A stretch of DNA of 64,000 bases from assembly GCA_016235455.1 (NCBI GenBank), contig JACRKZ010000166.1, positions 845 through 64,844 on the forward strand, read 5' to 3'. Below are positions 13,899 to 61,824 of the stretch, piece after piece. Both the position numbers and the translations under genes were made by a program. The notes under the pieces are model-generated. The model had not been told where the DNA came from and made no database searches. It saw only the letters and a program-made list of their open reading frames with translations. Origin of the DNA: Armatimonadota bacterium. Its GTDB lineage: Bacteria; Armatimonadota; UBA10988. Within the stretch, counting starts at the first letter, position 1. Every line of letters starts with the position of its first letter.

Positions 13899-13914
13899 AG
13901 CCGAGGAGGTACAC

Positions 13915-18442: not shown

Positions 18443-20002
18443 TCACGGCTTGACCCGAATGCCCACATCATCCACCCACGCCGCTCCGCCGCGCGCGACG
18501 ACCTCCAGGTCGATCTTGGCCGCCTCGGCCTCGGCCCAGGTCAGCGCCCTGGCCACACGCGTCCACTCGGTGCCGGCGGTGGCACCGATCTCGAGGTAGC
18601 GGCCCAGCCAGCGGCCGTCGTCGCCAAACAGCGCGCACTTGAGCTCGGCGCTCGCGCCCGGCGCGCAGCGGATCCAGGCCCACACCTCCACCGTCGCGCC
18701 GACCTTGACCGGCACCGGCGTCGCCGACTTCAGGTTGGGCTCCGGCGCGTCGAGCTTGACCGATCGGCGCCCACCGTGGGGGCCAGTCTCGTCGAACACG
18801 ACGTCGCCGCCGCCGTAGTTGACCCAGCCCCAGCGTCGCTCGAAGCCCGGGTTGTAGAGCAGGTTGCCGTCTTGGGCAGCCAGGTCGGCGGCGGTGAACA
18901 CCGGGATGTCGTCGTACACCGGCACACTGACGCCCAGCGAGTGCGGCGTCGGGTCGACGTGGTTGGGGCTGTCGGGGCAGAAGGCGTCGCGCAGTGCGTC
19001 GAGGTAGCCGAAGCCGTGCTGCTCAGTTGGCTCCAGGTAGCTGCCTTCGCCAAACTCGTTCCAGCACTCGGCGATGACGGCATTCACCTCCGGGTCGACA
19101 TAGCGCTTGGCCGCCTCGCACATGGCGCGGAACTTCTCGGGCCGGGCGCCGGTGCGCACCATGGCCTTGTCGCCATACCACGGCCGCGAGTCCCAGCCGG
19201 GCGAGACCGGCGGGATGAACGGCAGCACGCCTTCGTCGCGCGCCTGCCGCCACATCGTCTCGTAGCCGCTGACCATGGTGTCATACGGCGCCTGCCGGGC
19301 GCCGGGCGGCAGGTTGATGCTGGCGTAGTTGTAGGCCGAGCAGGCGCTGTAGCCGGCGGCCTTGAGCGACTTCTGGTCGTGCTGGGCCAGCGCCACCAGG
19401 AACAGCCGGGTGCCGGCCTCGGCTTCCATGCGGCGGATGAGCGCGGCGCAGCCCTCGACGCCGAAGCGCTCGATGAGCCGCCGCGGCTGGGACACCCAGA
19501 CCACCGCGCCGTCCTTGATCTTCAGGTAGTTGGGCTGGCCAAGGTAGCGCTCGCGCCAGACGCGCGCCATGCGCAGCATCTGCTCCTCGGTATAGTCGAC
19601 CGGGCCGGCCTCCTCGTTGCACCAGAAGACGCCGAAGCGCATCTGGTCGCGGTAGCGGGCGCGCAGGAAGCCCTGATCCAGCGCGCTGTTGTGGATGCTG
19701 ACCTGGCCGGACCGGTAGTCGTAGTACCAGTCGAAGGCGAAGAAGTCGATGCCGTGCTCGACCGCCCATTTGATATGCCAGTCGGCCACCTCGGGCTCGC
19801 CGTCGCGATACCAGCCGAGCACGGGCACCGGCCAGCCGTTCTGCGCCATGGGCACCCAGCGGGCGGCGTTGAAGTGGCCGGGGAAGTAGTAGCTGCCGAC
19901 GAGCAGCGGGCTGGCGGCGGGTTGCGGCGTCGGCGGCAAATCGGTCTGGCCAACCCCGGCCAGGCCGAGCAGCGCGATCAACACCAGGGCCAGGCTGGTC
20001 AT
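18443..20002 (-). CDS. secreted glycoside-hydrolase-like protein (TIM-barrel, 'DFFAFDWYYDY') with C-terminal CBM4/9-like domain
   Basis: Signal peptide 'MTSLALVLIALLGLAGV'. C-terminal 'GFERRWGWVNYGGGDVVFDE...VEVWAWIR' CBM-like. Confidence 0.55.
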   Translation of the reverse strand: MTSLALVLIALLGLAGVGQTDLPPTPQPAASPLLVGSYYFPGHFNAARWVPMAQNGWPVPVLGWYRDGEPEVADWHIKWAVEHGIDFFAFDWYYDYRSGQVSIHNSALDQGFLRARYRDQMRFGVFWCNEEAGPVDYTEEQMLRMARVWRERYLGQPNYLKIKDGAVVWVSQPRRLIERFGVEGCAALIRRMEAEAGTRLFLVALAQHDQKSLKAAGYSACSAYNYASINLPPGARQAPYDTMVSGYETMWRQARDEGVLPFIPPVSPGWDSRPWYGDKAMVRTGARPEKFRAMCEAAKRYVDPEVNAVIAECWNEFGEGSYLEPTEQHGFGYLDALRDAFCPDSPNHVDPTPHSLGVSVPVYDDIPVFTAADLAAQDGNLLYNPGFERRWGWVNYGGGDVVFDETGPHGGRRSVKLDAPEPNLKSATPVPVKVGATVEVWAWIRCAPGASAELKCALFGDDGRWLGRYLEIGATAGTEWTRVARALTWAEAEAAKIDLEVVARGGAAWVDDVGIRVKP

Positions 20003-20011
20003 GGGCGGCTC

Positions 20012-21697
20012 CTAGCGCGCGGAGAAGGGCTTGGTCTCAGTCACTGTGAAGGTGTGGGAGTCGTTGCCAATGTCCCTTGCGCCAGCGGGCAGATCGGTCA
20101 CTTCGTTGGCTTCCAGCGTGGCGGCACCGACGGCTTTGTCGTCGATGTGGATGGCTTCCTGGCCGGGCGCCTGGATGCGGTTGCGGCGGATCAGCGCGGT
20201 CTGGGGGTGGCCGCCGGTGAAGTGGATGCCGCGGAACAGCGCGCCGGCGATGGTGTTGTCCGCCAGCGTCAGGTTGTCGACCCCGGTCGACCCCGCATAC
20301 AGCCACATCGCGCCACGCCGCTGCCCGGCGAAGTTGCTGCCACCACGCAGGATGCGGTTGTCGCGTATGACGGTGTCGGACAGTGGGTGCATGGGGTAGG
20401 CGCCCGGCAGGTTCACCGTGAACGGCGACATGTAGCCGTCGGCGAAGGTGTTGCGCTCCACCAGATGGCCGCGGCCGCCGGCGATGTCGCAACCATGGCC
20501 CCACCACGGGGCGACCACGGTGTTGAGCGTCACCGTCACGCGCTCGGTGAGGTTGGGCGAGGAAGCGTTGGACAGCACGGCAATGCCATCGTCGCCTGTG
20601 CCGCGCACATGGCAGCCGGCGACCAGCGTGTCGCGTGTGGTCAGGTTCTTGCCGTTGTTGACGTTGATGCCATCGGCATACGTCTGGCGCACCCGGCAGT
20701 CGCGGATGGTGCCGCGTTCGCCGGCGATCCAGAAGCCGCAGTGGACATGCGTCATCCAGACCCTCTCGACCACATAGTCGTTGGCCAGGCCGATGAAGGC
20801 GCTGGCGGTGTCGCCACGGCGGGTACAGTCGAGCGCCTCGATGGTCAGGTCGCGCACCTGCGGGCCGTTGCCTTTGAGGGCGAACCCGCCGTAGCCGCCG
20901 AACGGGCCTCTGGCCGCCGGGGCGGTGAGCAGCAGCTTGGTGTGCCACATGCCGGCGCCGTCGACCTTCACGCTGTCGAGCGTGACGCGGCGCAGGTTGA
21001 GCCAGGTGCCCGGCGGCAGCCAGACGCTCTTGCCCTCAGCCTTGGCCTGCTCCACACAGCGCTCCAACGCCTTGGTGTCGGCCTCCGCATCCCTGCCAGT
21101 GGCGCCGAAGTCGGTGATGGATAGCGAGCCCGCGGGCTGCGCCAAGGGCGCGCCGAAGGGTTCGGGCTCGACGAGATCGATGCGGTAGTAGGCGGCAGTG
21201 TCCTCGGCGTCGCGGCGCAGTGCCAGCTTGTCGCCGCGCGCTAGCGGGGTGTCGAGCCGGTAGGCGGTCTCGTCCCAGAAGACGTGCGGCCAGGCGCTCG
21301 GCGTGTTGCTTTGGCCGTTCTCGGCCGGCTTTCCCTCGCCATAGAGCCAGTTGTACCGCGAGTTGAGCGTCAGCGTCTGGCGTCGCTGGCCATTCACGTA
21401 CAGGCCGAGCGTGGCGCTTTGGCCACCGCCCTCGGGGGCGTCGGGGATGCAGTGGCGGATGACCAGGCCCTGGGCCGGTGCGCCAACGGCGAACTCGACG
21501 CTCTGCCCGGTCTGGCTCAGCTCCACATAGCCACGACCGGCGGCCTCGATCTCGGGGGTGATCTGGTTGGGCTTGGGCAGGCCGACGAGGCGGACGACGC
21601 GGCCGTTGGTCGGTGCGTCCTCGGCCTCGAACGTGAAGGTGGATGGCGTTCGGATAGGCGCGGCAAAGACGGTCAGCAGAGCGAATATCGACAGCAC
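20012..21697 (-). CDS. secreted right-handed parallel beta-helix protein (pectate-lyase-fold glycanase) with N-terminal beta-sandwich domain
   Basis: ORF 20012..21778. GTG start 21697 after GGAG gives the signal peptide 'MLSIFALLTVFAAP'. Beta-helix repeats 'GINVNNGKNLT', 'GTGDDGIAV', 'HGCDIAGG'. Confidence 0.6.
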   Translation of the reverse strand: MLSIFALLTVFAAPIRTPSTFTFEAEDAPTNGRVVRLVGLPKPNQITPEIEAAGRGYVELSQTGQSVEFAVGAPAQGLVIRHCIPDAPEGGGQSATLGLYVNGQRRQTLTLNSRYNWLYGEGKPAENGQSNTPSAWPHVFWDETAYRLDTPLARGDKLALRRDAEDTAAYYRIDLVEPEPFGAPLAQPAGSLSITDFGATGRDAEADTKALERCVEQAKAEGKSVWLPPGTWLNLRRVTLDSVKVDGAGMWHTKLLLTAPAARGPFGGYGGFALKGNGPQVRDLTIEALDCTRRGDTASAFIGLANDYVVERVWMTHVHCGFWIAGERGTIRDCRVRQTYADGINVNNGKNLTTRDTLVAGCHVRGTGDDGIAVLSNASSPNLTERVTVTLNTVVAPWWGHGCDIAGGRGHLVERNTFADGYMSPFTVNLPGAYPMHPLSDTVIRDNRILRGGSNFAGQRRGAMWLYAGSTGVDNLTLADNTIAGALFRGIHFTGGHPQTALIRRNRIQAPGQEAIHIDDKAVGAATLEANEVTDLPAGARDIGNDSHTFTVTETKPFSAR

Positions 21698-21758
21698 GGG
21701 CAACTCCAAGGTTCTGGACCTGGAGTTGCCCGCGCCGCTGCGGAGTCCTGCCGTCAGC

Positions 21759-23240
21759 TCACCCGCACCACATTCCAACCACCGTCATCCGCCCACCATC
21801 GACGGTCGGCGCCGCCAGCGTGGTCGGCACCACCGTCGACTGCGCGTCGATCGTGTTCGTCGCCAGCAGGTCGTCATGCCGCAGCACCTCGTGGCTGGCC
21901 GTCGCGAACGCGCCGAACGAGCGCGCGTCGAGGTCGACCGCCAGCGGCTCAGTCAGGCTGCGGTTGACCGCGAACAGCGTCAGGCCGCCCTCGTCGTCGC
22001 GGACGACCGACAGGCCCAGCAGGTCGGCGCCGGCGCGCTCCTTGCAGTCGTACTTGGGGCTGTCGACCAGGGCCCGGAGCACCGTGCCGCGGCCGAGCGT
22101 GGAGGCTTGTTGCAGCGGCCAGAAGATGGGCTGGCGCCAGGCGGGGCCGCCTTTCTGGGTGAGGATGGGCGCGATGACGTTGACCACCTGGGCGATGCAG
22201 CCGATCTTCACGCGGTCGCAGTGGTTGAGCAGCGTGATCAACATGCCGCCGACCACCAGCGCGTCCTCCATGGTGTACTGGTCCTCGAGGATCGGCGGGG
22301 CCAGCTCCCAGTCCTTGATCTTGCGCTTCTCGCGGTCGTTGCTGCTGCGGAACCAGACGTTCCACTCGTCGAACGACAGCATGATGCGCTTGCGGCTGTG
22401 GCGCACGGCGGCCACGTGGTCGGCGGTGCAGACCACCTCGTCGATGAACTCGCCCATGGAATCGGGTTTGGCCAGGAAGCTGGGCGTGTCGCCCTCGCCG
22501 TTGCCGTAGTAGGTGTGGATGGAGACGTAGTCGACATGATCGAAGGTGTGGGTCAGCACCTCGCGTTCCCAGTCGCCGAACGTGGGCATGTGGCGGTGCG
22601 AGCTGCCGCAGGCGATCATTTCGATGCTCGGGTCGGTCCACTTCATCAGCTTAGCGGCCTCGCAGGCCACGCGGCCATACTCCGTGGCGGTCTTGTGGCC
22701 CATCTGCCAGGGGCCGTCGACCTCGTTGCCCAGGCACCACAGCTTCACCCCGTGCGGCTCGGCGTAGCCGTTGGCGCGGCGCAGGTCCGACAGTTCGCTG
22801 CCGCCGGGGTGGTTGCAGTACTCGACCAGCCGGCGCGCGTCCTCGGGTCCGCGGGTGCCCAGGTTGACCGCCAGCATCGGCGCGGTGCCGACCTTGCGAC
22901 ACCAGGCGGCGAACTCGTCGGTGCCGAACAGGTTGGGCTCGGTGCTCTTCCAGGCCAGGTCCAGCCGGCTCGGCCGCTGTTCGCGCGGGCCGATGCCGTC
23001 TTCCCACTGGTAGCCGGAGACGAAGTTGCCGCCGGGATACCGCATGACCGGCATGTCCAGCTCGCGCACCAGCGCCAGCACATCGCCGCGGAAGCCGTCG
23101 GCGTCGGCGGTGGGGTGGTCGGGCTCGTAGATGCCCTCGTAGATGCAGCGGCCCAGGTGCTCGGCGAAGCCACCGAACAGCCGCGGGTCGACGCGGTCGA
23201 TCACGAAGTCGCGGTCAACGGTCACCTTGGCGGTCAGCAT
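21759..23240 (-). CDS. abfA: alpha-L-arabinofuranosidase, GH51
   Basis: Start 'MLTAKVTVDRDFVIDRVDPRLFGGFAEHLGRCIYEGIYEP' matches the AbfA N-terminus. 'WCLGNEVDGPWQ' acid/base. Full-length ~493 aa. Confidence 0.85.
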   Translation of the reverse strand: MLTAKVTVDRDFVIDRVDPRLFGGFAEHLGRCIYEGIYEPDHPTADADGFRGDVLALVRELDMPVMRYPGGNFVSGYQWEDGIGPREQRPSRLDLAWKSTEPNLFGTDEFAAWCRKVGTAPMLAVNLGTRGPEDARRLVEYCNHPGGSELSDLRRANGYAEPHGVKLWCLGNEVDGPWQMGHKTATEYGRVACEAAKLMKWTDPSIEMIACGSSHRHMPTFGDWEREVLTHTFDHVDYVSIHTYYGNGEGDTPSFLAKPDSMGEFIDEVVCTADHVAAVRHSRKRIMLSFDEWNVWFRSSNDREKRKIKDWELAPPILEDQYTMEDALVVGGMLITLLNHCDRVKIGCIAQVVNVIAPILTQKGGPAWRQPIFWPLQQASTLGRGTVLRALVDSPKYDCKERAGADLLGLSVVRDDEGGLTLFAVNRSLTEPLAVDLDARSFGAFATASHEVLRHDDLLATNTIDAQSTVVPTTLAAPTVDGGRMTVVGMWCG

Positions 23241-23387
23241 GTCGGTCTCCCAGCGGCGGAGTATAGCGAATCGCGACCGACGTGGCGACGGGTTGAGCGG
23301 ATAGGTCAACTATTCGCTGCTCGCGCCGCCGATGCGGCCAAAGGGATGCAGCGACCGACACCGTATCTGCCTCTGGAGTAACCTGAG

Positions 23388-25247
23388 ATGGGCGGCGAGC
23401 GGAATGAAGAAGCGCGATGGCCGGGCGACCTGCGCCTCGCGGTCTGTGCGCTCGTGGCCTGGCTCTGGCTCTGGCTACGGGTCGACCCGAGCGGCATGTA
23501 TCACGGCTCGGGCCTGACTCTGCTGCCCACGTACAGCGTCGATCCCGTGTCCCGCGCGGGCCAGTTGGCGCTCATCGGCGGGCCGCTGGGTTACGCTTCG
23601 GCCTGGCTGGCGCAGTGGTTCGTCTGGCCAGCGGCGGGGGCGGGGCTGCTGACGCTCTGCGCACTGGCCGCGGCGTTGGCGGCCGATCGTGCCGCCACCT
23701 GCCTGGCCGGGAAGCGCGTGCCCGGTGTGCGCTACGTGCCGTGGCTGATGTTCCTGTTGGCCGATGGCCAGTACCTCTACCTGCTCGACTGGCAGGCGGG
23801 CTGGGCGGTGGCGCTGGGCGCCGCGGCCACCTACCTGTCATGGTCGCAGCCACGGCCGGCGGTGCGAGCCCTGGTCGGGCTGGCCGCGCTGGCGGCCCTG
23901 TACCGCCTGTTGGGCGGCGCGGCGCTGGTGGCGGTGCCGCTGGCCGCTGTCGGCGAGACGCGCTGGCGCGGGAGGCGTTGGGTGTCGGTAACCGCGGTCG
24001 TCGCGGGTCTGGCCATGCCGTGGGTGGCTTGCCGGCTCGGCTTCGACCAGGCGCCGGCCCAGGCCTACCGCAATCTGCTGCCACTCGCTGCCTTCAACGA
24101 CCAGTTCGGCATCGCCCGAGCCATCGGCTTGGGCATGTTGGCCTTCGGCGTGCTGGCCGGCGCGCTGGCGGTCAGCACCGCGACTCAAGCGCGGCGGGCA
24201 CCGCGGCCGGCGGTGGCTTGGGCTGGTGTCAGCGCCATGCTGCTGCTGGTGCTCGTCGGCTTTCGCGACGGGTCGCAGGCGGTGAGCCTCGATCTCTGCC
24301 GCCGGGCCGCGGACGGCGACTGGGCCGGGTTGCTGGCCTCCTCCCAGCGGTTGGAGCCGCTGACTCGGACCTGCTGGGAGGACGCCAACATTCTGCTGGC
24401 GCTGGCGCATACCGGGCAGGTGGGCGACCAGCTCCTCGCGCGCGGCGTGCGCACGCTGGCCTTCCTGCGCGACGCGCCCGTCTTCGGCGACCAGGTGGCG
24501 GTCACGCGCATGAGGGGCCAAGGCGGGCTTCAGTTGCGTGATCTGATGCTCGACCTCGGCCTGGTGAACCACGCCGAGCACGACAACGAGGAGGCGCTGG
24601 AGACTCAGGGCATCTACGCGCCGGTGGCGGTGTCGATGGCGCGCATCCAGGTGCTCCAGGGCCGGCCGGAGACCGCGCGTGTGCTGCTGCGCCTGGCCGC
24701 CGCGCAGCCGGGCGATCCGGCTGGCGCCGGTCGACTGCTGCACGCCCTGCGCGGCGACCCCAGCCTGGCGGGCGACCCCGCGCAGGTGGCGCTGAGTCAG
24801 AACCGGCTGCACACCGACCTGTACCGGGCCGCGCAGCTCCTGCCGGTGCTGGAGCAAGCGACGATCGAACACCCCGAGAACCGCCTCGCCTGGGAGTACC
24901 TGATGGCCGCCTGCCTGCTGTTCAATGAGGTGCCGCGGTTGGTGGCCGCGTTGCCTCGGATGACGGCCTATGGCCGCACGGCGCTGCCCCGGCACTGCGA
25001 GGAGGCTGTGCTCTGTCACGAACTGCTCACGGGCCGGCCGGCCGAACTGGGCCGCTGGTCGGTGCGGCCGGAGGCGCGGGCGCGGTTCGCTGCGTTCGGT
25101 CAGGCGCTCGGCGGCGCCGACAGCGTGGCGGACGCACTGTGGCAGCCGAACCACCCCAAGCCCAACGCGGCGCGCGTCTGGCAGGGGGCGTGGACCGATA
25201 CCTACTACTACTATCGCCTGTTTGGCATGTCGGGGGCGGTGCGATGA
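23388..25247 (+). CDS. polytopic integral membrane protein (>=10 TM) with C-terminal soluble helical domain; function unknown
   Basis: Hydrophobic helices throughout residues 20-300. Stop overlaps the next gene's start (ATGA). Confidence 0.5.
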   Translation: MGGERNEEARWPGDLRLAVCALVAWLWLWLRVDPSGMYHGSGLTLLPTYSVDPVSRAGQLALIGGPLGYASAWLAQWFVWPAAGAGLLTLCALAAALAADRAATCLAGKRVPGVRYVPWLMFLLADGQYLYLLDWQAGWAVALGAAATYLSWSQPRPAVRALVGLAALAALYRLLGGAALVAVPLAAVGETRWRGRRWVSVTAVVAGLAMPWVACRLGFDQAPAQAYRNLLPLAAFNDQFGIARAIGLGMLAFGVLAGALAVSTATQARRAPRPAVAWAGVSAMLLLVLVGFRDGSQAVSLDLCRRAADGDWAGLLASSQRLEPLTRTCWEDANILLALAHTGQVGDQLLARGVRTLAFLRDAPVFGDQVAVTRMRGQGGLQLRDLMLDLGLVNHAEHDNEEALETQGIYAPVAVSMARIQVLQGRPETARVLLRLAAAQPGDPAGAGRLLHALRGDPSLAGDPAQVALSQNRLHTDLYRAAQLLPVLEQATIEHPENRLAWEYLMAACLLFNEVPRLVAALPRMTAYGRTALPRHCEEAVLCHELLTGRPAELGRWSVRPEARARFAAFGQALGGADSVADALWQPNHPKPNAARVWQGAWTDTYYYYRLFGMSGAVR

Positions 25248-26761
25248 CCCGACGACGATGGCTGGTCCTGGCTGGCGTGGCCGTGGCACTGGCGGCGGCC
25301 ATCGCCACCCGCCTGCCGGGCCCGAGGCCCAGCGGTCAAGTGGCTCAGGAAGCTGCGGCGCCGCGGCTGTGGCCAGCGCTCGACGGCGTCGTGCTGCCGC
25401 CGAACATCGCGCCGCCCGGCCTGCGCATCGACGAGCCGGGCACAGCCTGGCACGTGCTGGTCAAGGGCGAGCGTGGCGCTGCGGTGCAGGCCTCGGGCAC
25501 GCGGCCCGGACTGAGCCTGCCCCTGCGCGGGTGGCGCCGCCTGCTGGCGGCCAATGCCGGCGGCCAGTTGGCGCTGGTCGTCAGCGCGCGCCGGGCGGCA
25601 GGCGGCTGGACGCGGTACGCGCCGGTGGCGCTGAGCGTGGCTCGCGAGCCGATCGACCGTTACCTGGTCTACCGCATGTTGCCGCCGGCCTACAGCCTGG
25701 TCTCCGATACGGGTATCTACGAGCGCGACCTGACCAGCTACCGGCAGCGTCTGGTGGTCCACGGTCGCCAGGTGAACGGCTGCGTCAACTGCCACACGTT
25801 CTGGCAGGGCTCGGGCCGGCGCTTCACGCTGGGCACCCGCAGCGACACCTGGGGCAACCGGACGCTGCTGGCCAACGGCGGCAAAGTGGTCTCGCTCGCG
25901 CAGCCTGTGGGCTTCGGCACGTGGCACCCCGACGGCAAGATGGTGACCTTCTCGGCCAACAAGGTGGTGCAGTTCTTCCACACGGCCGGCAACGAGACGC
26001 GTGAGGTGATGGACATGCACGGCGCGCTGGCCTGCTTCGACATCGCGCAACAGCGCTTCGTCAGCAGCCCCGAGCTGTCTCAGCCCGAATACCTGAACAG
26101 CTATCCGTGCTGGGCACCGGATGGCCGCACACTCTACTTCGTCCGCGCGCGCCGGCCGTGGGGGCCCGGTGAGCCCTATCCGCCGAAGCAGTATGACCAG
26201 GTGCGCTACGACCTGGCGCGCATCAGCTACGACCCGGCGACGAGCACCTGGGGCCATGTCGAGACGCTGCGTTCGGGCCGGGCGGCGGGCCGCAGCTTCG
26301 TCTTCCCGCGCGTCTCGCCCGATGGACGCTGGTTGCTCTACACATCGTGCGAGTTCGGCTGCTTCCCCGCCTTCAAGGCGTCAGCCGACCTGGGTCTGAT
26401 CGACCTGCGCACCGGACGCGACCAGCCGGTCGAGGTCAACAGTGACCGGTCGGAGAGCTGGCACACCTGGTCACGCAACGGTCGCTGGGTCGTGTTCTCC
26501 AGCAAGCGCGCCGACGGCCTGCTCACCAAGCTCTACCTGGCCTACTTCGATGCCGACGGCCGGATGCATCCGCCGTTGCTGCTGCCCCAACGCCGAGCCG
26601 ACTACTACGACCGGCTGTACCACAACTACAACGTGCCCGAGTTGGTCGAATCGCCGGTGGCGGCCTCCGCTGGTCAGCTCGGTCGGGCCGGTCGTGAGCC
26701 GACGCAGGTCAAGGCCAAACTGCCAGACGGTGTCGGACCCGCGGCAGTCACCGCGCAGTGA
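25244..26761 (+). CDS. secreted TolB/PD40-like beta-propeller protein carrying one CxxCH haem-c motif
   Basis: ORF 25139..26761, start 'MTRRRWLVLAGVAVALAAAIA'. 'GCVNCHTF' CxxCH. PD40 repeats 'WAPDGRTLYFV', 'SPDGRWLLYTS', 'WSRNGRWVVFSS'. Confidence 0.6.
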   Translation: MTRRRWLVLAGVAVALAAAIATRLPGPRPSGQVAQEAAAPRLWPALDGVVLPPNIAPPGLRIDEPGTAWHVLVKGERGAAVQASGTRPGLSLPLRGWRRLLAANAGGQLALVVSARRAAGGWTRYAPVALSVAREPIDRYLVYRMLPPAYSLVSDTGIYERDLTSYRQRLVVHGRQVNGCVNCHTFWQGSGRRFTLGTRSDTWGNRTLLANGGKVVSLAQPVGFGTWHPDGKMVTFSANKVVQFFHTAGNETREVMDMHGALACFDIAQQRFVSSPELSQPEYLNSYPCWAPDGRTLYFVRARRPWGPGEPYPPKQYDQVRYDLARISYDPATSTWGHVETLRSGRAAGRSFVFPRVSPDGRWLLYTSCEFGCFPAFKASADLGLIDLRTGRDQPVEVNSDRSESWHTWSRNGRWVVFSSKRADGLLTKLYLAYFDADGRMHPPLLLPQRRADYYDRLYHNYNVPELVESPVAASAGQLGRAGREPTQVKAKLPDGVGPAAVTAQ

Positions 26762-28303: not shown

Positions 28304-29425
28304 CTAGATCGTCGTCGGGTCGCCGTGGCGAGGCGGCAGCGGGTGAGGCCGGACCAGGGCGCCGCCCTGTTCGTAGCTCTCGATGGCAGCCCAGGTGTAC
28401 TCCAGCACAGCCAGGGCATCGCGGCCCGAGGCGCGCAGGTTCTGCGGCGAGACACCGTTGGTCACGTCTTCGAGGAAGGCGTGGATGCGCCGCGGGAAGG
28501 TCTGGCCGAAGTCGGTGATACCGGTGTTGGTCTCTTCGACACCACCGGTGCCGCCGCCGGACATCTTGCTCGGGTCACCGGCCTTCTCGGCGCCAGGCGC
28601 GGGCCAGTAGGTGATCTTCTCGATGCAGTTCTCGATGCAGAAGGCGCCCTTGGTGCCCGACAGCTCGAAGCTCCACCAGCCACCCAGGCCATACGGCGCG
28701 TCGCCGCGCTGGCTCAGCAGGTAGCCTAGCGCGCCGCTCTCGAACTGCAGGTGGATGCTGACGCTCGAGACCATCACGTCGCCCGCCTGCCGACGCACGC
28801 CGGGGCGGTTGGCGAAGCACTGCACGTGGGTCACGTTGCCGCAGTAGTGGCGCATGACGCTGAAGGGATGCGTCAGAAAGGCCTTGAAGTGCGCGTAGGG
28901 GAAGCCCCACCAGCGCGGATCCTTGTTGGGGGCGTAGTTGTACTCGCCACCAGAGAAGCCCATCTTGTGCAGGCAGTAGACCAGCTCGCCCACCTGCCCG
29001 TTCCTGATGTATTCCTCGCCCTTGGCCGCGGTCTCGGTGAAGAAGTGGTTGAGGTTGCAGCCCAGCAGCAGGTTCTTCTCCGCGGCCTTGGCCACCATCT
29101 GCCGAGCCTCGGTGATCTCGTTGCTCAGCGGCTTCTCGCACAGCACGGCCTTGCCGGCTTCGAGCGCTTCCATGGTGGGCTCAAAGTGCCAGGAGCCGTT
29201 CTCGAAACCGCCGGTGGTGACGTCGACGATGTCGAGGTCCTCGTTGCGCAGCATGTCGGTCAGCGAGTAGTAGGCCTTCACGCCATACTTCTCCGCGGCC
29301 TCGTCAGCCCGCGCCTTGACCACGTCGCACACCGCCACCAGATCCGCCAGGTCATCGTCCGTGTGGCACTGGGCGTGGTGGTTGCCAATGCCTCTCAAGC
29401 CGACCACGCCGACCTTCAACGCCAT
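28304..29425 (-). CDS. Gfo/Idh/MocA-family oxidoreductase (cytoplasmic)
   Basis: ORF 28304..29635, start re-picked at 'MALKVGVVGLRGIGNHH'. 'CEKPLS' family motif. Confidence 0.8.
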   Translation of the reverse strand: MALKVGVVGLRGIGNHHAQCHTDDDLADLVAVCDVVKARADEAAEKYGVKAYYSLTDMLRNEDLDIVDVTTGGFENGSWHFEPTMEALEAGKAVLCEKPLSNEITEARQMVAKAAEKNLLLGCNLNHFFTETAAKGEEYIRNGQVGELVYCLHKMGFSGGEYNYAPNKDPRWWGFPYAHFKAFLTHPFSVMRHYCGNVTHVQCFANRPGVRRQAGDVMVSSVSIHLQFESGALGYLLSQRGDAPYGLGGWWSFELSGTKGAFCIENCIEKITYWPAPGAEKAGDPSKMSGGGTGGVEETNTGITDFGQTFPRRIHAFLEDVTNGVSPQNLRASGRDALAVLEYTWAAIESYEQGGALVRPHPLPPRHGDPTTI

Positions 29426-29706
29426 GGGTATCTCCCTATCCTGGGCGCCGCATCCGAGTGCGTCGCGTTGGTAGGATCGGTTCCGCGCGGCCGGTCGGGG
29501 TCCTTCCCGCGGGTTAGGATTACCGGGCCAGTTCGTAGCACATGCGGGCCAAGGTGGCAGTTGCAGCGCCGTTGCCGGACGTTCACAACCTGGCAGCAAA
29601 GCGCGCTGAACCGTGTCCCGACGGCCGCGTCTCATGGTGCCGAAGTGGTTTCGTGGCCCGGGATGGTCCGAGCCGCGCTCGGTTCAGTCAACAAGGAGAC
29701 ACGACG

Positions 29707-30225
29707 ATGAAGAGCCCGCTCAAGTGGACCGCGCTGGCTGGCGTGGTGCTGATAGCTGCTATCGCGACGGCGGTCACGACGCCGGCACCCCTGCCCTGGA
29801 GTGCCACGGCCGGCAAGCCCAAGGTGGAGCCCGGTAGCACGACTGGCTGCTTCCTGTGGAGTGACAAGGACACGGTCACGGTGATGACGACCACGCAGAG
29901 CAAGAAGGGACTGCGCTGGAACGGCCGCATCGAGGTGCGCGGTGCCACCATCGTCGCGCCGCGCGGCATGAAGGACGAGAAGCGTGACGGCTTCAGCCAG
30001 CCCAAACCCAACGTGCTGGAGTTCAGCTTCGACACCCATACCAACGTCGACGGTGTGAAGTTTGGCCTGAAGCCCGACCCCAAGGCCACCCCCTCGGGCG
30101 ACACGCCCAAGCCGGTGCTCTGTGCCGGTGTGAAGCTGGAGGGCAATGTGACGCCGAAGCTGTACTACGGCGCCAAGCCCACCGCCGCTCCGAGCAACCC
30201 GGTGGCCTTCGACCTGACCAGGTGA
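29707..30225 (+). CDS. small secreted protein of unknown function
   Basis: ATG 29707 after 'aaggagac'. Signal/TM 'MKSPLKWTALAGVVLIAAIATAV'. Beta-rich. No recognisable family. Confidence 0.4.
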   Translation: MKSPLKWTALAGVVLIAAIATAVTTPAPLPWSATAGKPKVEPGSTTGCFLWSDKDTVTVMTTTQSKKGLRWNGRIEVRGATIVAPRGMKDEKRDGFSQPKPNVLEFSFDTHTNVDGVKFGLKPDPKATPSGDTPKPVLCAGVKLEGNVTPKLYYGAKPTAAPSNPVAFDLTR

Positions 30226-30318
30226 TGGCCGTCCTGCGCGGCGACGCCAGTCCCTGTGGCGCCGCCACGCAGCGTAGATAGGGCGGGCCGCCGGCAGGAG
30301 TGCCGGCGGCCCGCTGGC

Positions 30319-33087
30319 TTATTGCGCGTCGCGGCAGACGGTCGCGTCCGGCACCGCGCCGGGCATGTCGTCCCGCGGCTTGACGGCCAGTTGCTGCCGT
30401 ACCGGCGCGAACACGGCCAGGATGGCCTGATAGTCCGGGTCACTGGTGCCCGCGAAGACTGCCTGACCGCACTTGCCGCTGCCGCCCTGGGCTTTGGCCA
30501 GCGGCGCGGCAGCGAAGCCGTTGAGTTCGGGCCGGTCGAGCCGGGTCCATACCGGCCGCGGCAGCGACTGCGCATGGCACGAGGCGCAGCGCCGCTGGCG
30601 TACGTCGGCCAGCACCTTGTCGAGCCCAGCGGGATAGATGCGGCGGCAGCCGACGGCCAGCGGGTAGGCGGTCTCGCTGGTGCCGTAGTAGGGCACGTTG
30701 AGGTCGATCCAGCTCAGGATGCGTTGCCGCTCGCCGGCCTCGAGCTTCACCCGGGCCTGGCCGTCGGCGCCGGCATGGCCGCCGATGACGATGTCGGCCA
30801 GCCGGCTGCGCGGCGAGCCCCAGGCGCGCGGCGTGATCTCCAGGATGTTGGCCTCCTGGCCGTTGTAGGTGGGGATCCACGACGTGTATGGGTTGTCCAG
30901 CTCGCCCTCGCCGATGGACCGTCTCCCGCGCGCCAGCGTCTCATACGAGACGTTGAAGAAGTCGGTCTTGTCGCCGGCCAGATCGACCCCGCCCGCGGGC
31001 GCCACGCCGTCATGGCAACTCACACAATGCCGGTCCAGCACCGGCTGCACCACCGACGCGTAGTCGAAGCCGACGCCTTGGCCCCAGTCGGGAGGCGTGA
31101 GCGCCGCGGGAGGCGAGGCCAGCGCCGACGGTCGACGTGGCGGCGTGGTCGTCGTGCGCTGCTCGTGACAGCCGACGCAACCTTGCGTCTCGCCCGGCAT
31201 GAGGTGGGTGAAGGTCCTCATGCGCTGGACGGCACGGCCTTCGGCGTCGAGCGCCATGAAGTAGATGGGTACGCCCGCGGGCACCTGGAAGTGCGCCGAG
31301 CCGTCGTCGGCCACGGGTGCGAAGCCCCAGACCTTCTTGCCCGCGTAGGTTGCGCCGCAGGAGATCACCGGGAACTGGAACCCGAAGGCGCGGTTGGCCA
31401 CGTCGGTGCGGACCGGCTTCTCCATCTCCTGCACCACGGCGATGCGCTTCACCTCGCCGCGCTTCACCACTGGCTCCAACCCGCGATAGACGTCCTCGAC
31501 GAACATCGTGGCCCACCCGCCCACGCCCGCCGACGCTGGTTCTGACAACTTCGTGGCGATGGCCGGCACCGCCCGCGCTCGCACCGGCGCGGCGTTGTGG
31601 AAGCCCATGCCGTCGCGCGGCGCGACCACCTCGGCTTCGCTGGTGCGGGCATAGTCGCGCAGCAGCACGGTGCCATCGCGCGACACCAGGTACCACTGGT
31701 CGTCGAGCGGGTAGGGTGTGGCATAGGGCCCGCGGATGTGGTTGCCGCTGCCCTGGTCGACCTTGCCGGCATCGATCTCGGGCGTGAGGTTGGTCAGCGC
31801 GGCCTGGGTGTTGTCGCCGTAGCCACGGTCGATCAGCCCGATGGCGCCGCGAGCCGGGCCGTTGTGCGCGGTCAGCGTGCACAACACCTTGGTGCTGCCG
31901 GGCACCGCGCGAGCTTCCATGATGGTGGCGGGACTGAGCACGCGATTGCCCCAGAATCCGGCCAGACCCGTGCCGTCGGGACTGATGGTCCACAGGCTCT
32001 GGATGGGGATGGCCGGCCGGTCGACGTATTCCCACCGGGAGTAGATGATACGCCCGTCGTTCAGCACGCTCGGCGTGAAGTCGTTGACCAGATTGGCGCT
32101 CAGCCGACGCGCATCGCTGCCGTCGGCGTTCATCCTGAACAGCAGGCCGACGGGCGACACCCAGCAGTAAGCGAACCGGGCCGCGCGCGTGGACAGGAAG
32201 GCGATGCCGCCATCCGGCAGCCAGCAGCCGTTGTAGTCATGCCAGCGGCCGGTGGTCAGTTGCCGGAGTCCGGTGCCGTCGGCGGCGACGGTCCACAGGT
32301 GATAGCCCTGGTCGGTGGCCTGGCGCCAACTGAAGAGGATGGTCCGCGCGTCGGGCGAGACGTCGCAGTCGAGGATCTGCCCCGCGCCGGCGTCGACCAG
32401 CCGTGTCATCGCACCGTCGGGCTCGCGCCGCCACAGGCCGCCGCCGGCCCGGAAGCCCTCGGTGTGGTAGGTGTAGACGTGGCTGGAATCGATGGGGTAG
32501 CGCTGCACCATGACCAGCGGGTCGAGCTTGACCGGGAGTTCGGCCAGCGCCTTGACATCGAGCGTCGACTCGCCGGGCAGCGAGCGCTTGGGCGCCGGCG
32601 TGGCAAAGACCATGATCTCCGATGCGCCGGGGTTGGAGCCGCCATAGGAGCTGCCAAAGACGAAACGGAGCGACTTGGTGACCACTGGCTGGGCCAGCGT
32701 GATCCGCTGCGGGTCGCTGCGCTGCCGGAACTGGCCTGCAGCCAGTTCCTTACTGTCCGCGTCGAGCAGCCGATAGCCCTGCCAGGCTTCGGCCATCTCC
32801 CAGGCGTTGCGCGCGTAGTAGACCACCTCGGCCACGGTGACCGGCTCGGGCCAGGTCAGTGTGAACTCGGCGCCCTGCCGATGCGTGCTCCCGTTGACCG
32901 CCCAGGCCCGGCCGACGTCGTCGTGCGAGCCCGCGCCGGGAATGACGCCGTCGATGGCGCGGTCGGCGCCGTAGGTGTCGTTGAACGCCGACGTGGCGGT
33001 CGCCGTGGCGTGACGAGCCAGGTTCTCGGGCATCTCGGCGGCGGTCAGGCCGCCGAGCGACAGCAGGCAAGCGATCAATGCGCGCAT
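30319..33087 (-). CDS. paralog 2 of discoidin / PD40-propeller / multi-haem c-type cytochrome protein (three CxxCH: GCVGCHE, CVSCHD, RCASCHA)
   Basis: ORF 30319..33510, start at 'MRALIACLLSLGGLTAAE'. Colinear with 4516..7683 ('GETQGCVGCHEQRT...HCVSCHDG...SWIDLNVPYYG'). Confidence 0.7.
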   Translation of the reverse strand: MRALIACLLSLGGLTAAEMPENLARHATATATSAFNDTYGADRAIDGVIPGAGSHDDVGRAWAVNGSTHRQGAEFTLTWPEPVTVAEVVYYARNAWEMAEAWQGYRLLDADSKELAAGQFRQRSDPQRITLAQPVVTKSLRFVFGSSYGGSNPGASEIMVFATPAPKRSLPGESTLDVKALAELPVKLDPLVMVQRYPIDSSHVYTYHTEGFRAGGGLWRREPDGAMTRLVDAGAGQILDCDVSPDARTILFSWRQATDQGYHLWTVAADGTGLRQLTTGRWHDYNGCWLPDGGIAFLSTRAARFAYCWVSPVGLLFRMNADGSDARRLSANLVNDFTPSVLNDGRIIYSRWEYVDRPAIPIQSLWTISPDGTGLAGFWGNRVLSPATIMEARAVPGSTKVLCTLTAHNGPARGAIGLIDRGYGDNTQAALTNLTPEIDAGKVDQGSGNHIRGPYATPYPLDDQWYLVSRDGTVLLRDYARTSEAEVVAPRDGMGFHNAAPVRARAVPAIATKLSEPASAGVGGWATMFVEDVYRGLEPVVKRGEVKRIAVVQEMEKPVRTDVANRAFGFQFPVISCGATYAGKKVWGFAPVADDGSAHFQVPAGVPIYFMALDAEGRAVQRMRTFTHLMPGETQGCVGCHEQRTTTTPPRRPSALASPPAALTPPDWGQGVGFDYASVVQPVLDRHCVSCHDGVAPAGGVDLAGDKTDFFNVSYETLARGRRSIGEGELDNPYTSWIPTYNGQEANILEITPRAWGSPRSRLADIVIGGHAGADGQARVKLEAGERQRILSWIDLNVPYYGTSETAYPLAVGCRRIYPAGLDKVLADVRQRRCASCHAQSLPRPVWTRLDRPELNGFAAAPLAKAQGGSGKCGQAVFAGTSDPDYQAILAVFAPVRQQLAVKPRDDMPGAVPDATVCRDAQ

Positions 33088-33136
33088 GAGGGTGTCCTCA
33101 GACGAGAGTGTGGCAGAGCGCGGTGGCAGACGCAAG

Positions 33137-35590
33137 CTACTTGCCGGCAATGCGCCGTATTGCTTCCACTTCGGCCGGGTCAAACGCTGTCCCATCGGCC
33201 CGCAGCAGGTCGTGATGCCAGACCTTGGGCGCCGGGTCACCGGGCTTGGAGCCCCACGGCATGTAGGTCTGCGTGCGCCCGGCGACCAAGCCCCAGCAGT
33301 AGCTGCCCACCTGCTTCTCCCGCAGCAGTGCCAGATCCGTGGCCCAGCGACTGCCCAGCACACGCGACATCCATTCGGTGCAGAGCAACGGCCGGCCCTG
33401 TGCGGCGAACTCATCGATGGCCGACCGCAGGGCCTGGACGTCGCCGTAACGGTGGAAGGAGACCACGTCCGACAAGGCCAGCATGGTCCTGGCGCAGCCC
33501 GCGGGGCCACCCCACGGCCCGGCGGTCAACGGCTGGCTCGGCGCGGCGGCGCGGGCCCAGCCGAAGGTCGCGGCCAAGAAGGGTTCGCTGCCATCGCCAT
33601 GCGCGCAGTTGCCCGGCTCGTTGTACAGGTCCCAGGCGACAATACGCGGGTCGTCGGCGTGGGTGCCTACCAGATCCTTGACAAACGCCTCGGGCCCCGC
33701 CCATCGGGTCCTGTCGGCGACGATCCCGTGGCCGGGGCTGGGCACCCAGCCGCTGTTGTGGACCCCAGTCACGGGGTCGGGCTGCGGGCCGACGCTCGGC
33801 TCTCGCCCGGCGAACGCGCAGTCGTCGAACAGCACGGGCATCACGCTCTGGCCATGCTTCGCGGCGAGTGCCAGGAAAGCCTCGAAGCGCGCGCGGAAGC
33901 CAGCGGGGTCGTCGGCCCACACCACGTAGTTGAGGAACACGCGCAGCGAGTTGAAGCCCAGACCTTGGGCCCAGCCGAGTTCGCGGTCCATGGTGGGCTG
34001 ATCGAAGGTGGCGGCCTGCCACATCTCGACATCGTTCACGGCGCTGGATGGCAGGTAGTTGCAGCCGACCAGCCAGCCCGCGCGCGCCGACCACTGCGCG
34101 GCGCGTTCCGTTGTCCACCGCGTCGCGGGCAGCGGCTCGGCGGCCACCAACTGCACGTAGGCATCGGTCGCATCGGCCCGCTTGTCGCCGGTCACGCTAA
34201 CCACGAGCTCATGCTGGCCAGGGGCCAGCCCGGTCAGCCGGTGACGCTGGTTCCAGGCCACGGTGGGGCCAAAGGTGTCCAGCGGAGGCAGATCGCGGCC
34301 GTCGAGCGCGAGGCCGGCGATGCCGCAGTCCGGGCCGGACTTGTGCACCAGAGCCAGGCCGGTTCCCGCAAACCTGATCCTGGCTGTGCCACCGGCCTCG
34401 CGGCAGAAATGCAGCGCGCCACCCAACGGGCCGCTGCCTGTCCAGCGTGTCCAGCCGTCGCCGAAGGCGATGCCGGCGTCGTCGTGCGCGGGCAGGCCAG
34501 GCCTGGTCTGCATCTGGCGGTAGTCGCGGTGGGCGAAGTCGAGCGCGGTGTCGTGCGTCAGCGCTCGAATGGCCGTGTGCTCCGCCGGGTCGTACGGTTG
34601 ACCATCACGGTGGTACAGGTCGTGAAACCAGACGGCGGGTTGCGGGGCGCCGCGCTTGCTCGACCAGCCGAACTGGCATTGGGTGCGGCCGTTGACCAGG
34701 CCCCAACTCAGGCAACCGACACCTTCGTCGCGCAGCAGCGACAGGTCGGTCGACCAGACGCTGCCGAGGGGCCTCGCCATCCATTCGGTGCAGACCACCG
34801 GCCGGCCGTGGCGCTTGAAGCGCTCGATGGCCGAACGCAGGCCGTCGCGGTTGCCGTAACAGTGAAAGCTGACGATGTCCGACAGCTCGATCTGCCGCTG
34901 GCTGAGGGCGGCCGACGCACCCCATGGCCCCATGGTCAACGGCTGGCTTGGCCGCGACTCGCGTGCCCAGGTGAAGGTGGCCTCAACCAGGGGCAGGCTG
35001 CGGTCACCCAGGCCGCTGTTGCCCGGCTCGTTGTACAGGTCCCACAGCACGACGCGGGGGTCCTGGCCGAAGCGGCCGACCATGGCCCGCACGTACTTCT
35101 CGAGGTCGGGCCAGGCGCCGCGGTCCTCGACGGCGCGGAGGCCAGGACTCGGTGTCCAGCTCGGCAGGATCATGCCGGGGACAGGTTCGCGTTGCGGGCC
35201 GAGGTGGGGCTCGGTGACCGGTGGGTCGCCAAAGCTGCAGTCGTCGAACAGCACGGGCATGACACGGATGTGGTGCCGGTTGGCTATTGCCAGAAACTGG
35301 TCGAAGCGCCGCTCGGTGCCAGCCGGGTCATCGTGCCACACCAGGTACTGCACAAACACCCGCACAACATTGAAGCCGAGCGTCTGCGCCCAGCCCAGCT
35401 CGCGGTCGATGGTCACGGCGTCGAAGGTGGCAGCCGACCAGAATTCGGTCGTGTTGGCCGCGCTCGAAGGCACGTAGTTGCAGCCCACCAGCCACGGCTG
35501 CGCGCGATACCACTCCCAGGCGCGTTCGGCCGGCCAGGTGGTCGGACCAGCCAGCAGGCTGGACATGATCAGGGGCACGGCGGGGGTCAT
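33137..35590 (-). CDS. secreted protein with two tandem GH5-like (clan GH-A) catalytic modules, each followed by a beta-sandwich domain
   Basis: Internal duplication: 'AERAWEWYRAQPWLVGCNYVPSSAAN...WDLYNEPGNSG...VVCTEWMARP' and 'TERAAQWSARAGWLVGCNYLPSSAVN...WDLYNEPGNCA...LLCTEWMSRV'. Confidence 0.75.
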   Translation of the reverse strand: MTPAVPLIMSSLLAGPTTWPAERAWEWYRAQPWLVGCNYVPSSAANTTEFWSAATFDAVTIDRELGWAQTLGFNVVRVFVQYLVWHDDPAGTERRFDQFLAIANRHHIRVMPVLFDDCSFGDPPVTEPHLGPQREPVPGMILPSWTPSPGLRAVEDRGAWPDLEKYVRAMVGRFGQDPRVVLWDLYNEPGNSGLGDRSLPLVEATFTWARESRPSQPLTMGPWGASAALSQRQIELSDIVSFHCYGNRDGLRSAIERFKRHGRPVVCTEWMARPLGSVWSTDLSLLRDEGVGCLSWGLVNGRTQCQFGWSSKRGAPQPAVWFHDLYHRDGQPYDPAEHTAIRALTHDTALDFAHRDYRQMQTRPGLPAHDDAGIAFGDGWTRWTGSGPLGGALHFCREAGGTARIRFAGTGLALVHKSGPDCGIAGLALDGRDLPPLDTFGPTVAWNQRHRLTGLAPGQHELVVSVTGDKRADATDAYVQLVAAEPLPATRWTTERAAQWSARAGWLVGCNYLPSSAVNDVEMWQAATFDQPTMDRELGWAQGLGFNSLRVFLNYVVWADDPAGFRARFEAFLALAAKHGQSVMPVLFDDCAFAGREPSVGPQPDPVTGVHNSGWVPSPGHGIVADRTRWAGPEAFVKDLVGTHADDPRIVAWDLYNEPGNCAHGDGSEPFLAATFGWARAAAPSQPLTAGPWGGPAGCARTMLALSDVVSFHRYGDVQALRSAIDEFAAQGRPLLCTEWMSRVLGSRWATDLALLREKQVGSYCWGLVAGRTQTYMPWGSKPGDPAPKVWHHDLLRADGTAFDPAEVEAIRRIAGK

Positions 35591-35697
35591 GGCGGCGGCT
35601 CCATTGCGCTGCCAGTTCGAGCGCGGGCGCGCGCCTCCTTCACGCTTGACGCCACGCCCCTCCTTGCCTAGAGTTGAGGGTGTCAGGGAGGTCAGCC

Positions 35698-37152
35698 ATG
35701 GTCAGGCGTACCGCTGTGCTGGTGGTTGGAGGTCTGCTGCTGCTCGGCGCGGCCCGGGCACAGGTGGTGTTCCCGCAGTTCGCCTTCCCGGCCAAAGTCG
35801 CGGGCGGGCATATCGTCTTCAGTCGCCTGATGCCCGTCAAACTGGCGGCTGGGGGGCTCACGGCCGACACCATCGTCTCCAAGCTGTTCGTCATGAACGG
35901 CGACGGCACGAACCCGCAGCCGTTCCTGGTCACGGCCGACCTGACCCAGTTCAAGGAGCCGCGCTGGTCGCCGCAGTTCGACCGGCTGGCCTTCAGCTCC
36001 AACTTCGCCAGCTCGCGCTCGGCCTGCATGACCGACATTTTCGAGGCACGAGCCGGCGGCGTGGTGCGTCGCGTGACCGGCAACGACCTGGTCGGCGCCG
36101 CGCCCATCGGCTATGGGTCGGTGGTCGGCCGCGTTGACCCGCAGTTCAAGGACGACCCCACGGCTGTGCATAAGGGCGGCGAGATCAGCGTCACCGCCCA
36201 GGGCATGGACGGCGCGGTGGTGCATCCGTCGCTGACCGACAACAGCTTCACGCTGCCCCGCGTCGCCGCGGGCGACACGGTGTGGGTCAAGGTCTGGGTC
36301 ACGGAGCGGCTGGGCACGCTGACCATGATCAAGGTGCGCCCCGGCGAGGTCACCAACATCGGCACGGTCAAGCTCAACGAGGGCACGTTCACCGCCTCCA
36401 AGCCCAGCCTCTCGGTGGGCGGGCAGCATGTGGTCGGCATGGGCGGGCTGACTCAGGTGGCGTTGACCGACAACCCCATCGGCGGGGTGATCGGCGAGAC
36501 GGTGCCGGGCTTCCAGGCGGGCAAGCAGAAGACGATCAGCGGCGCCGAGAGCATTTGTGTCTACGAAGGCCGCACCGGCGCGCTGCTGGGCAGTATCGAC
36601 CTGGGCAAGCTGGGCTACGAGCAGGCCAAGGAACCGGCGCTGTCGCCAGACGGCACGGCCATCGCGTGCGCCTGGGGCAAGATGACGCAGGAGAACCTGG
36701 CGCTGGTGCCCGTGGCCAGCGTGCTGGCCAATGCTCCCGCGCCGAAGGTGCTGGTGCCGGGCCAGATGCTCATGTTCCAGCCCGGTGCGCCGATGATCGG
36801 CTGTGGCGGGCCGGTCTGGTCGCCCGACGGCAAGCGCCTCGCCTTCACCCGCACCATCGTCATCGGCGATGGTACGGTCAGCGCGGGCATCTGGGTGGTC
36901 AACGTCGACGGCTCCGGCCTGAAGGAAGTGGCCGCCCAAGGGCTTGAACACCTGTGCTGTCAGCCCTGCTTCTCGCCTGATGGCACGAAGCTGGCGTTCA
37001 CGGCGCTGACCGGCCGGCGGGGCCCGCTGAAGGTCGAGCAGCTCATCGCATCGCAGTTTGGTCTGGACATCTTCAGCGTGGATCTGGCCTCGGGCAAGCA
37101 GACGCGGCTCACGCAGGATGGCGCGAGCTGCGAGCCGGCCTGGGGGCCGTAG
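35698..37152 (+). CDS. secreted TolB/PD40-like beta-propeller repeat protein
   Basis: ATG 35698 after 'agggaggt'. Signal 'MVRRTAVLVVGGLLLLGAARAQ'. 'WSPQFDRLAFSSN', 'WSPDGKRLAFT', 'FSPDGTKLAFTA'. Confidence 0.6.
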   Translation: MVRRTAVLVVGGLLLLGAARAQVVFPQFAFPAKVAGGHIVFSRLMPVKLAAGGLTADTIVSKLFVMNGDGTNPQPFLVTADLTQFKEPRWSPQFDRLAFSSNFASSRSACMTDIFEARAGGVVRRVTGNDLVGAAPIGYGSVVGRVDPQFKDDPTAVHKGGEISVTAQGMDGAVVHPSLTDNSFTLPRVAAGDTVWVKVWVTERLGTLTMIKVRPGEVTNIGTVKLNEGTFTASKPSLSVGGQHVVGMGGLTQVALTDNPIGGVIGETVPGFQAGKQKTISGAESICVYEGRTGALLGSIDLGKLGYEQAKEPALSPDGTAIACAWGKMTQENLALVPVASVLANAPAPKVLVPGQMLMFQPGAPMIGCGGPVWSPDGKRLAFTRTIVIGDGTVSAGIWVVNVDGSGLKEVAAQGLEHLCCQPCFSPDGTKLAFTALTGRRGPLKVEQLIASQFGLDIFSVDLASGKQTRLTQDGASCEPAWGP

Positions 37153-45160: not shown

Positions 45161-45162
45161 GC

Positions 45163-61689: not shown

Positions 61690-61824
61690 CCGATATCTGC
61701 CTGCTAGACCCTGGGTGTTTCGACGCCCATCCTGGGTTCCTTGTTGTCACACCTTCATCGCAAACGATCAATGTGAAAAAGGAGTTGGGCGCCTGAGCGC
61801 CAACCTCCGGTGCGGGAGCTGATC

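Follow-up and report, generated by a model that had tools for sequence, protein, structure and literature searches.

The closest described relative of the gene reported here is HzsA, the alpha subunit of hydrazine synthase (HZS) from the anammox planctomycete Kuenenia stuttgartiensis (5C2V chain A). The ligation of its haem alphaI is non-canonical: Tyr591 is an iron ligand, and His587 and Cys303 are zinc-bound. HZS-like proteins are widespread beyond anammox bacteria, and their function is not established (PMC12758564, PMC10732223). The non-anammox HzsA homologues lack Tyr591 and Cys303, no experimentally confirmed function has been reported for any of them (PMC12758564), and a broad family of enzymes that use other substrates has been proposed (PMC10732223). 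Co-localised alpha and beta-gamma homologues were described as HZS-like clades I-IV (PMC12758564) and as 'hzs-like genes' (PMC10732223). The present analysis concerns paralog 2, one of three HzsA-like genes (paralogs 1 to 3) carried by a 64,000-nucleotide (nt) stretch of contig JACRKZ010000166.1 (hereafter the window; G+C = 70%) from an Armatimonadetes metagenome-assembled genome (MAG). Paralog 2 encodes an exported multidomain c-type cytochrome-type protein with the HzsA fold and a lectin-like N-terminal module. It is a further member of a large known, uncharacterised family: the non-anammox HZS-like proteins (named 'HzsA-related protein' or 'discoidin domain-containing protein' by NCBI), widespread in Planctomycetes-Verrucomicrobia-Chlamydiae (PVC) bacteria, belong to the same superfamily. 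The two published studies centre on copies beside beta-gamma homologues; the discoidin-fused tri-haem subfamily and its C-terminal module are undescribed there.

The open reading frame (ORF) of paralog 2 runs on the minus strand from an ATG at 33087 to a TAA at 30319-30321 (Table 1), and its product is 100% identical to a MAG protein, NCBI 'hypothetical protein HZB16_23405 [Armatimonadetes bacterium]'. The ATG at 33087 was preferred because a signal peptide follows directly and because the translation matches the 922-amino-acid (aa) database protein; a longer ORF from a GTG at 33510, which overlaps the neighbouring glycoside hydrolase family 5 (GH5) gene by 374 nt, was rejected. Attachment of haem c requires export. 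An AlphaFold2 model was built from a 122-sequence input (predicted local distance difference test score, pLDDT, 89.4; predicted template modelling score, pTM, 0.86), and in it the N-terminal DUF7402 module forms a beta-sandwich (pLDDT above 90). The HZS_alpha profile PF18582 was matched over its full length (1-98) with 85.5 bits (cut-off 26.6), and this score, together with the HzsA-like fold (propeller, middle domain and C-terminal haem domain), places the protein in the HZS_alpha-domain superfamily. For a protein of this composition 0.0045 CxxCH motifs are expected by chance, and three or more were obtained in 0/20000 shuffles.

When solved structures were searched by sequence, only HzsA (5c2v_A) was matched. 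The alignment covered the middle domain with the haem alphaI motif, and also the haem alphaII motif (VDFRRDIQPILDAKCAMCHD vs FDYASVVQPVLDRHCVSCHD). The same chain was the top Foldseek match to the model among PDB entries (E 1.3e-27, template modelling (TM) scores 0.52/0.61, 811 columns, 16% identity). The two proteins have in common the beta-propeller, the HZS_alpha domain with its CxxCH and a domain with a second CxxCH. By comparison with HzsA, paralog 2 adds the N-terminal discoidin-like module, its third-CxxCH module extends past the HzsA C-terminus, it has neither hzsB nor hzsC beside it, and its host is an Armatimonadetes MAG, whereas that of HzsA is an anammox planctomycete. Paralog 2 is distinct from hydrazine synthase: a true HzsA identity was ruled out by the score against the NCBIfam equivalog NF052339 (hydrazine_alpha; 44 bits vs a cut-off of 800, E 7.5e-12, a partial match over aa 541-642) and by the lack of hzsB, hzsC or a fused hzsBC nearby. 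With seven HzsBC-like proteins from other loci as tblastn queries, no HzsB- or HzsC-like gene was found in the 64-kb window. The only other CxxCH-bearing ORF of the window, besides the HzsA-like copies, encodes a PD40/TolB-like propeller protein with a single motif (25139-26761, plus strand; VNGCVNCHTF).

Far weaker, single-domain fold matches were obtained to TolB and to galactose oxidase (discoidin plus propeller). Galactose oxidase resembles paralog 2 as a secreted redox enzyme with an N-terminal discoidin-type module (carbohydrate-binding module (CBM) family 32) before a beta-propeller, and it came in the second tier of Foldseek matches (E 1e-17 to 1e-12); because the TM score was only about 0.2, the likeness is at single-domain level. 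Galactose oxidase differs in its copper-radical site, in being haem-free and in its propeller type, and it serves as an analogy only.

For assessment of the haem sites, the 120 best homologues of paralog 2 (54-67% identity) were taken as the orthologue set; they came from Verrucomicrobiota, Lentisphaerae, Planctomycetota and Armatimonadetes MAGs. All 120 carried exactly three CxxCH motifs, the last one in an 'RRCxxCH' context. Three haem sites are the norm in this large orthologue group, which spans Verrucomicrobiota, Lentisphaerae, Planctomycetota, Armatimonadetes and Hydrogenedentota. At the first site C637, C640 and H641 were invariant in the orthologue alignment, as was the second CxxCH; at the third, C834, C837 and H838 were each 100% conserved, together with C873 and M908, and the latter two were invariant wherever the third motif occurred, paralog 3 included. 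Four further residues (H771, M623, H203 and C308) were invariant across the 120 orthologues and paralogs 1 and 3. Among these, H203, C308 and M623, located in the propeller and middle domain, are candidate residues of the haem 1 pocket, or a candidate extra haem ligand or crosslink.

A sequence-only reading of this DNA had described the third CxxCH, in 'RRCASCHAQ', as a gain of paralog 2, and had named its absence from orthologues as the observation that would count against the idea. The motif is real and none of the 120 orthologues lacked it. What did not stand was the gain: the motif is shared by paralog 3 and by all the homologues. The alignment of the three paralogs, which the same reading had called for, placed the third CxxCH of paralog 3 at the position of the third motif of paralog 2, so that the motif is not specific to paralog 2.

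Over the C-terminal 283 aa of paralog 2 no Pfam family scored above threshold, all cytochrome matches being below it, and a fold search with the third module alone detected no cytochrome fold. Both results would suit a haem-free third site, at which the Cys pair is structural or metal-binding, or the motif a chance one, leaving the protein effectively di-haem. We regard this as highly improbable, given the complete conservation of the two Cys, the His and Met908 in the 120 orthologues and paralog 3, and the very low chance expectation given above. A profile of the C-terminal module also showed a weak similarity (E 7e-4) to the haem-binding segments of reaction-centre tetrahaem cytochromes, and in the AlphaFold2 model the third CxxCH comes directly after a helix, as in c-type cytochromes. 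The helix before the motif and the invariant Met 70 residues on would fit a His/Met electron-transfer haem.

The three window paralogs are 27-33% identical to one another over their core (BLASTP), whereas paralog 2 is up to 67% identical to orthologues from other phyla; from their low mutual identity, the window copies appear to be old lineages. Paralog 1 has the layout of paralog 2, as the sequence-only reading had proposed (DUF7402 and HZS_alpha were found in both by Pfam), except that a large insertion separates the discoidin-like module from the propeller and that its sequence ends before the third motif. Among the 150 cluster representatives closest to it, 104 carried two motifs and 21 carried three. 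Because its closest relatives share the two-haem form, paralog 1 represents a separate conserved di-haem subfamily and no decayed copy. The di-haem and tri-haem forms are thus both conserved sub-architectures of one superfamily, and no haem was 'gained' in paralog 2. In paralog 3 the N-terminal DUF7402 is replaced by PF14683 (polysaccharide lyase family 4 (PL4) domain III, CBM-like), the region of the third motif contains inserts, and the C-terminus is extended by about 40 aa. The gene divergent from paralog 3 (61777-63999) encodes He_PIG and CBM_4_9 domains. In the superfamily as a whole, 3992 cluster representatives (50% identity) matched paralog 1; one representative (P0272, 1774 aa) contains two complete HzsA-like units with four CxxCH motifs in one polypeptide.

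Table 1. Features of paralog 2, its transcription unit and the other HzsA-like genes (window coordinates).
Feature	Position	Strand	Basis or remark
Paralog 2, HzsA-related tri-haem c-type cytochrome gene, 922 aa	30319-33087	minus	ORF, Pfam and AlphaFold2 model
Signal peptide-like N-terminus (MRALIACLLSLGGLTAA)	33037-33087	minus	judged by eye from sequence
DUF7402/discoidin (F5/8 type C)-like module, aa 22-161	32605-33024	minus	Pfam PF24135 E 2e-13; PF00754 E 4.6e-5
PD40/TolB-type beta-propeller, about aa 190-540	31468-32520	minus	weak PD40 matches; all-beta blades in model; TolB and HzsA fold matches
HZS_alpha middle domain, aa 544-642, CxxCH 1 at its end	31162-31458	minus	PF18582 E 3.8e-24
CxxCH 1, CVGCH, aa 637	31165-31179	minus	aligned to HzsA haem alphaI region
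CxxCH 2, CVSCH, aa 688-692	31012-31026	minus	aligned to HzsA 'DAKCAMCHD'; equivalent of haem alphaII site
H771, candidate distal ligand	30775-30777	minus	invariant in alignment
C-terminal module, aa 800-922, with CxxCH 3, invariant C873 and M908 (M908 at 30364-30366)	30322-30690	minus	
CxxCH 3, CASCH, aa 834, inside 'RRCASCHAQ'	30574-30588	minus	
Two perfect 14-bp GC-only hairpins (span 30236-30314)	30283-30314, 30236-30270		between convergent stops of paralog 2 and ORF 29704-30225
GH5-paralog 2 gap, 49 nt, GAGGA Shine-Dalgarno-like motif about 8 nt before ATG	33088-33136	minus	
Tandem GH5-like glycoside hydrolase gene, 817 aa, upstream of paralog 2	33137-35590	minus	
NEP/TEW motifs of the GH5 gene	35024-35032/34781-34789 and 33614-33622/33371-33379	minus	
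Paralog 1, 1055 aa, DUF7402 and HZS_alpha, two CxxCH	4516-7683	plus	Pfam
Paralog 3, 983 aa, propeller, HZS_alpha and three CxxCH	58738-61689	minus	

The GH5 gene next to paralog 2 was assigned to GH5 (clan GH-A) on the Pfam Cellulase match and on NEP (catalytic acid/base) and TEW motifs in both of its domains. Its internal duplication, pointed out by the sequence-only reading, is genuine: self-alignment gave 56% identity between the two catalytic domains across 327 aa. Domain 1 matched Cellulase (PF00150) with 46.7 bits (cut-off 23.5), and domain 2 alone scored 16.5, below the threshold. Only distant matches (E above 1e-3) were found in the PDB. The NCBI name of the product is 'cellulase family glycosylhydrolase', some relatives are named endo-1,4-beta-mannosidase by the Joint Genome Institute (JGI), and tandem-domain GH5 homologues occur in other genomes. 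A cytoplasmic location was considered in view of the short, uncharged leader; homologues have canonical signal peptides at the same position, and GH5 export is therefore likely, judging from these leaders. A single-domain GH5-like gene (13798-15411, plus strand), 55% and 50% identical to the two tandem domains, has no cytochrome neighbour; a gene for an AraC-type regulator (12097-13011) lies a short distance upstream of it. On the other side of the tandem GH5 gene, a PD40/TolB-like propeller protein is encoded divergently (35674-37152, plus strand), 83 nt apart.

The adjacency of the GH5 gene and paralog 2 had been described as 'back-to-back', with GH5 'downstream'. The adjacency itself is real, but because both genes lie on the minus strand, GH5 is upstream and the two are arranged head-to-tail. 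The intergenic gap contained no promoter-like or terminator-like site and no unusual RNA structure (z -0.52). Beyond the stop of paralog 2, the hairpin region folded at -63.7 kcal/mol (z -5.45; 0/200 shuffles as stable); the hairpins were missed by the terminator scan because they lack a T-tract, and the transcription unit probably ends there. On in silico grounds, it is plausible that GH5 and paralog 2 share one transcript.

Whether this pairing is conserved was assessed at 80 orthologous loci, each with up to 10 kb of flanking sequence, on contigs that represent one genome per species. With all the window proteins as tblastn queries, a GH5 relative was found within 10 kb at 0/80 loci; an HzsA-like neighbour was likewise found at 0/4 loci of tandem or near GH5 homologues. 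The pairing was not found at the Armatimonadetes orthologue loci, and in the Victivallales MAG GCA_964402115.1 the best orthologues of both genes are present on different contigs. The GH5-paralog 2 adjacency is specific to the source genome. The window holds about 8-9 genes resembling those of carbohydrate-active enzymes (CAZymes) among roughly 38: GH51, GH87-like, GH106, GHL6/fucosidase-like, WbsX-like, an SGNH esterase and three GH5-like domains. Since the window is this CAZyme-dense, a GH neighbour is unsurprising; a rough estimate puts the probability of having one by chance at about 40%.

These results bear on the possibility of a dedicated module of two genes, GH5 and paralog 2, whose cytochrome would itself help to break down polysaccharides, for instance through oxidation or reductive activation of the substrate or product of GH5. 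The shared strand and short terminator-free gap, with strong hairpins only after paralog 2, would be expected of such a module, as would the fact that both proteins appear exported (judged by eye, from sequence). Each of the three HzsA-like paralogs in the window has a neighbour that is CAZyme-like or carries a CBM, and the two closest orthologues of paralog 2 (loci L001 and L002) have GH95 and GH78-like genes nearby. We nevertheless consider a dedicated module improbable, as the partner was absent from all 80 orthologous and all four GH5-homologue loci, the two genes are on separate contigs in the Victivallales MAG, a third GH5-like copy in the window lacks a cytochrome neighbour, and chance alone would often supply a GH gene. 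For the same reasons (0/80, 0/4 and the CAZyme density), the proposed link between the cytochrome family and polysaccharide hydrolysis, drawn from the adjacency, was not borne out as a property of the family.

For the flanks of the orthologous loci, ORFs were called with a codon-usage model trained per locus (in agreement with database gene calls for L001/L081), and 174 flanking proteins were searched with Pfam, families with at least two members being listed. No dominant partner family was found among these 174. The commonest recurrent neighbour was a protein of about 630-656 aa that combines a beta-propeller with a di-haem CCP/MauG domain (6/68 immediate upstream neighbours, 4/106 further neighbours); one of these proteins matched both HzsB (E 1.3e-36) and HzsC (E 5.8e-27). 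This neighbour is the fused beta-gamma homologue of the HZS-like clusters in PMC12758564 and PMC10732223. At several verrucomicrobial loci (L003-L008 and L048) a fused HzsB+HzsC homologue with two CxxCH motifs is encoded upstream of the orthologue of paralog 2, itself tri-haem and discoidin-fused; at L005 it occupies 7972-9912, on the same strand as the orthologue and separated from it by a 29-nt gap. A pair of this type looks like an HZS-like operon in non-anammox bacteria. The beta-gamma gene adjoins verrucomicrobial orthologues, not the window copy.

From these neighbours it could be argued that paralog 2 supplies the alpha-like subunit of a multi-haem complex of the HZS type, with its fused beta-gamma partner encoded elsewhere in the genome, acting on a small redox substrate (a nitrogen oxide or a hydroxylamine-like compound) and on no glycan. 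The recurrence of the propeller-CCP/MauG protein, the HzsB and HzsC matches and the published co-localisation of alpha and beta-gamma homologues are all of the kind such a complex would produce. We hold it to be possible but unlikely: the 64-kb window and most orthologous loci lack a beta-gamma homologue, small-molecule chemistry would leave the N-terminal lectin-like modules unexplained, and conservation of the key catalytic residues of HZS does not extend to non-anammox homologues (PMC12758564).

The next commonest neighbours were sulfatases (7), GFO/IDH/MocA oxidoreductases (4), tandem HZS_alpha paralogs (4) and beta-helix proteins (3). The glycan-degradation genes beside some orthologues vary, including GH95, GH78-like, sulfatase and SGNH esterase genes. 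For domain fusions, 36 long superfamily representatives were inspected: the extra domains were Laminin_G_3 (6), F5/8 type C (4), NPCBM (3), Laminin_G_2 (3) and CBM9 (1), and no fusion to a GH catalytic domain was found among the 36. Domain fusion is the sturdier carbohydrate evidence, ahead of gene order. A looser glycan link than GH5 adjacency holds through the CBM-like and lectin-like fusions and the variable CAZyme and sulfatase neighbours. In the literature, nothing was found on DUF7402 or on any characterised HzsA-like enzyme tied to glycans.

Because of the recurrent CBM-like fusions and the variable CAZyme and sulfatase neighbourhoods, a bolder proposal can be made: discoidin- or CBM-fused HzsA-related cytochromes would make up a new class of haem oxidoreductases that target glycans, in essence an 'auxiliary activity' family of bacteria in which swappable lectin modules serve as the tether, haem 1 oxidises or oxidatively cleaves glycans or their decorations, and the third haem is the electron exit to the respiratory chain. 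We put this forward as speculation and rate it as improbable.

The reading that we favour, with moderate confidence, is of an exported, glycan-tethered, tri-haem HzsA-related cytochrome with catalysis at haem 1 and a relay through haems 2 and 3, next to which GH5 lies opportunistically. The swappable N-terminal lectin-like or CBM-like module would tether the enzyme to a glycan or to a surface rich in glycans. The site of catalysis would be haem 1, at the interface of the propeller and the middle domain, as in HzsA, and haems 2 and 3 would relay electrons towards a soluble partner or away from it, the invariant H771 being the probable second axial ligand at site 2. GH5 and paralog 2 are probably co-transcribed, in what may be an opportunistic gene order within a CAZyme-rich region and no obligate functional pair. 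Several points weigh against this reading. Glycan binding by DUF7402 is assumed from its fold class, and covalent haem at the three CxxCH sites is predicted from conserved motifs in an exported protein. CAZyme neighbours were modest, at roughly 8-10% of the 174 flanking proteins, a figure that has no genome background and under-counts singleton CAZymes because only families with at least two members were listed. Finally, the verrucomicrobial orthologue shares an operon with the fused HzsBC homologue, which points to small-molecule chemistry in a multi-subunit complex and away from glycan chemistry.

Other genes of the window were recorded as follows. Two segments (18443-23309 and 48458-51742) are densely packed with CAZyme genes and encode a WbsX-like protein, a GH87-like alpha-1,3-glucanase with a beta-helix, a protein with the C-terminal domain of GH51-type alpha-L-arabinofuranosidases and a GH106-like alpha-L-rhamnosidase. 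GFO/IDH/MocA oxidoreductases are encoded at 7750-9075, 28304-29428, 44129-45493 and 45163-46224. On the minus strand at 9221-12090, a CysN/CysC-type fusion (GTPase and adenosine phosphosulfate (APS) kinase) stands beside a PAPS_reduct-domain gene: sulfate activation amid glycan-degradation genes.

Because the GH5 adjacency is not conserved, the locus adds little beyond one more example of its family. If the lectin-fused tri-haem subfamily does act on glycans, PVC bacteria and Armatimonadetes would have a redox activity based on haem among their means of degrading polysaccharides, and the type of enzyme from which hydrazine synthase evolved would become clearer.

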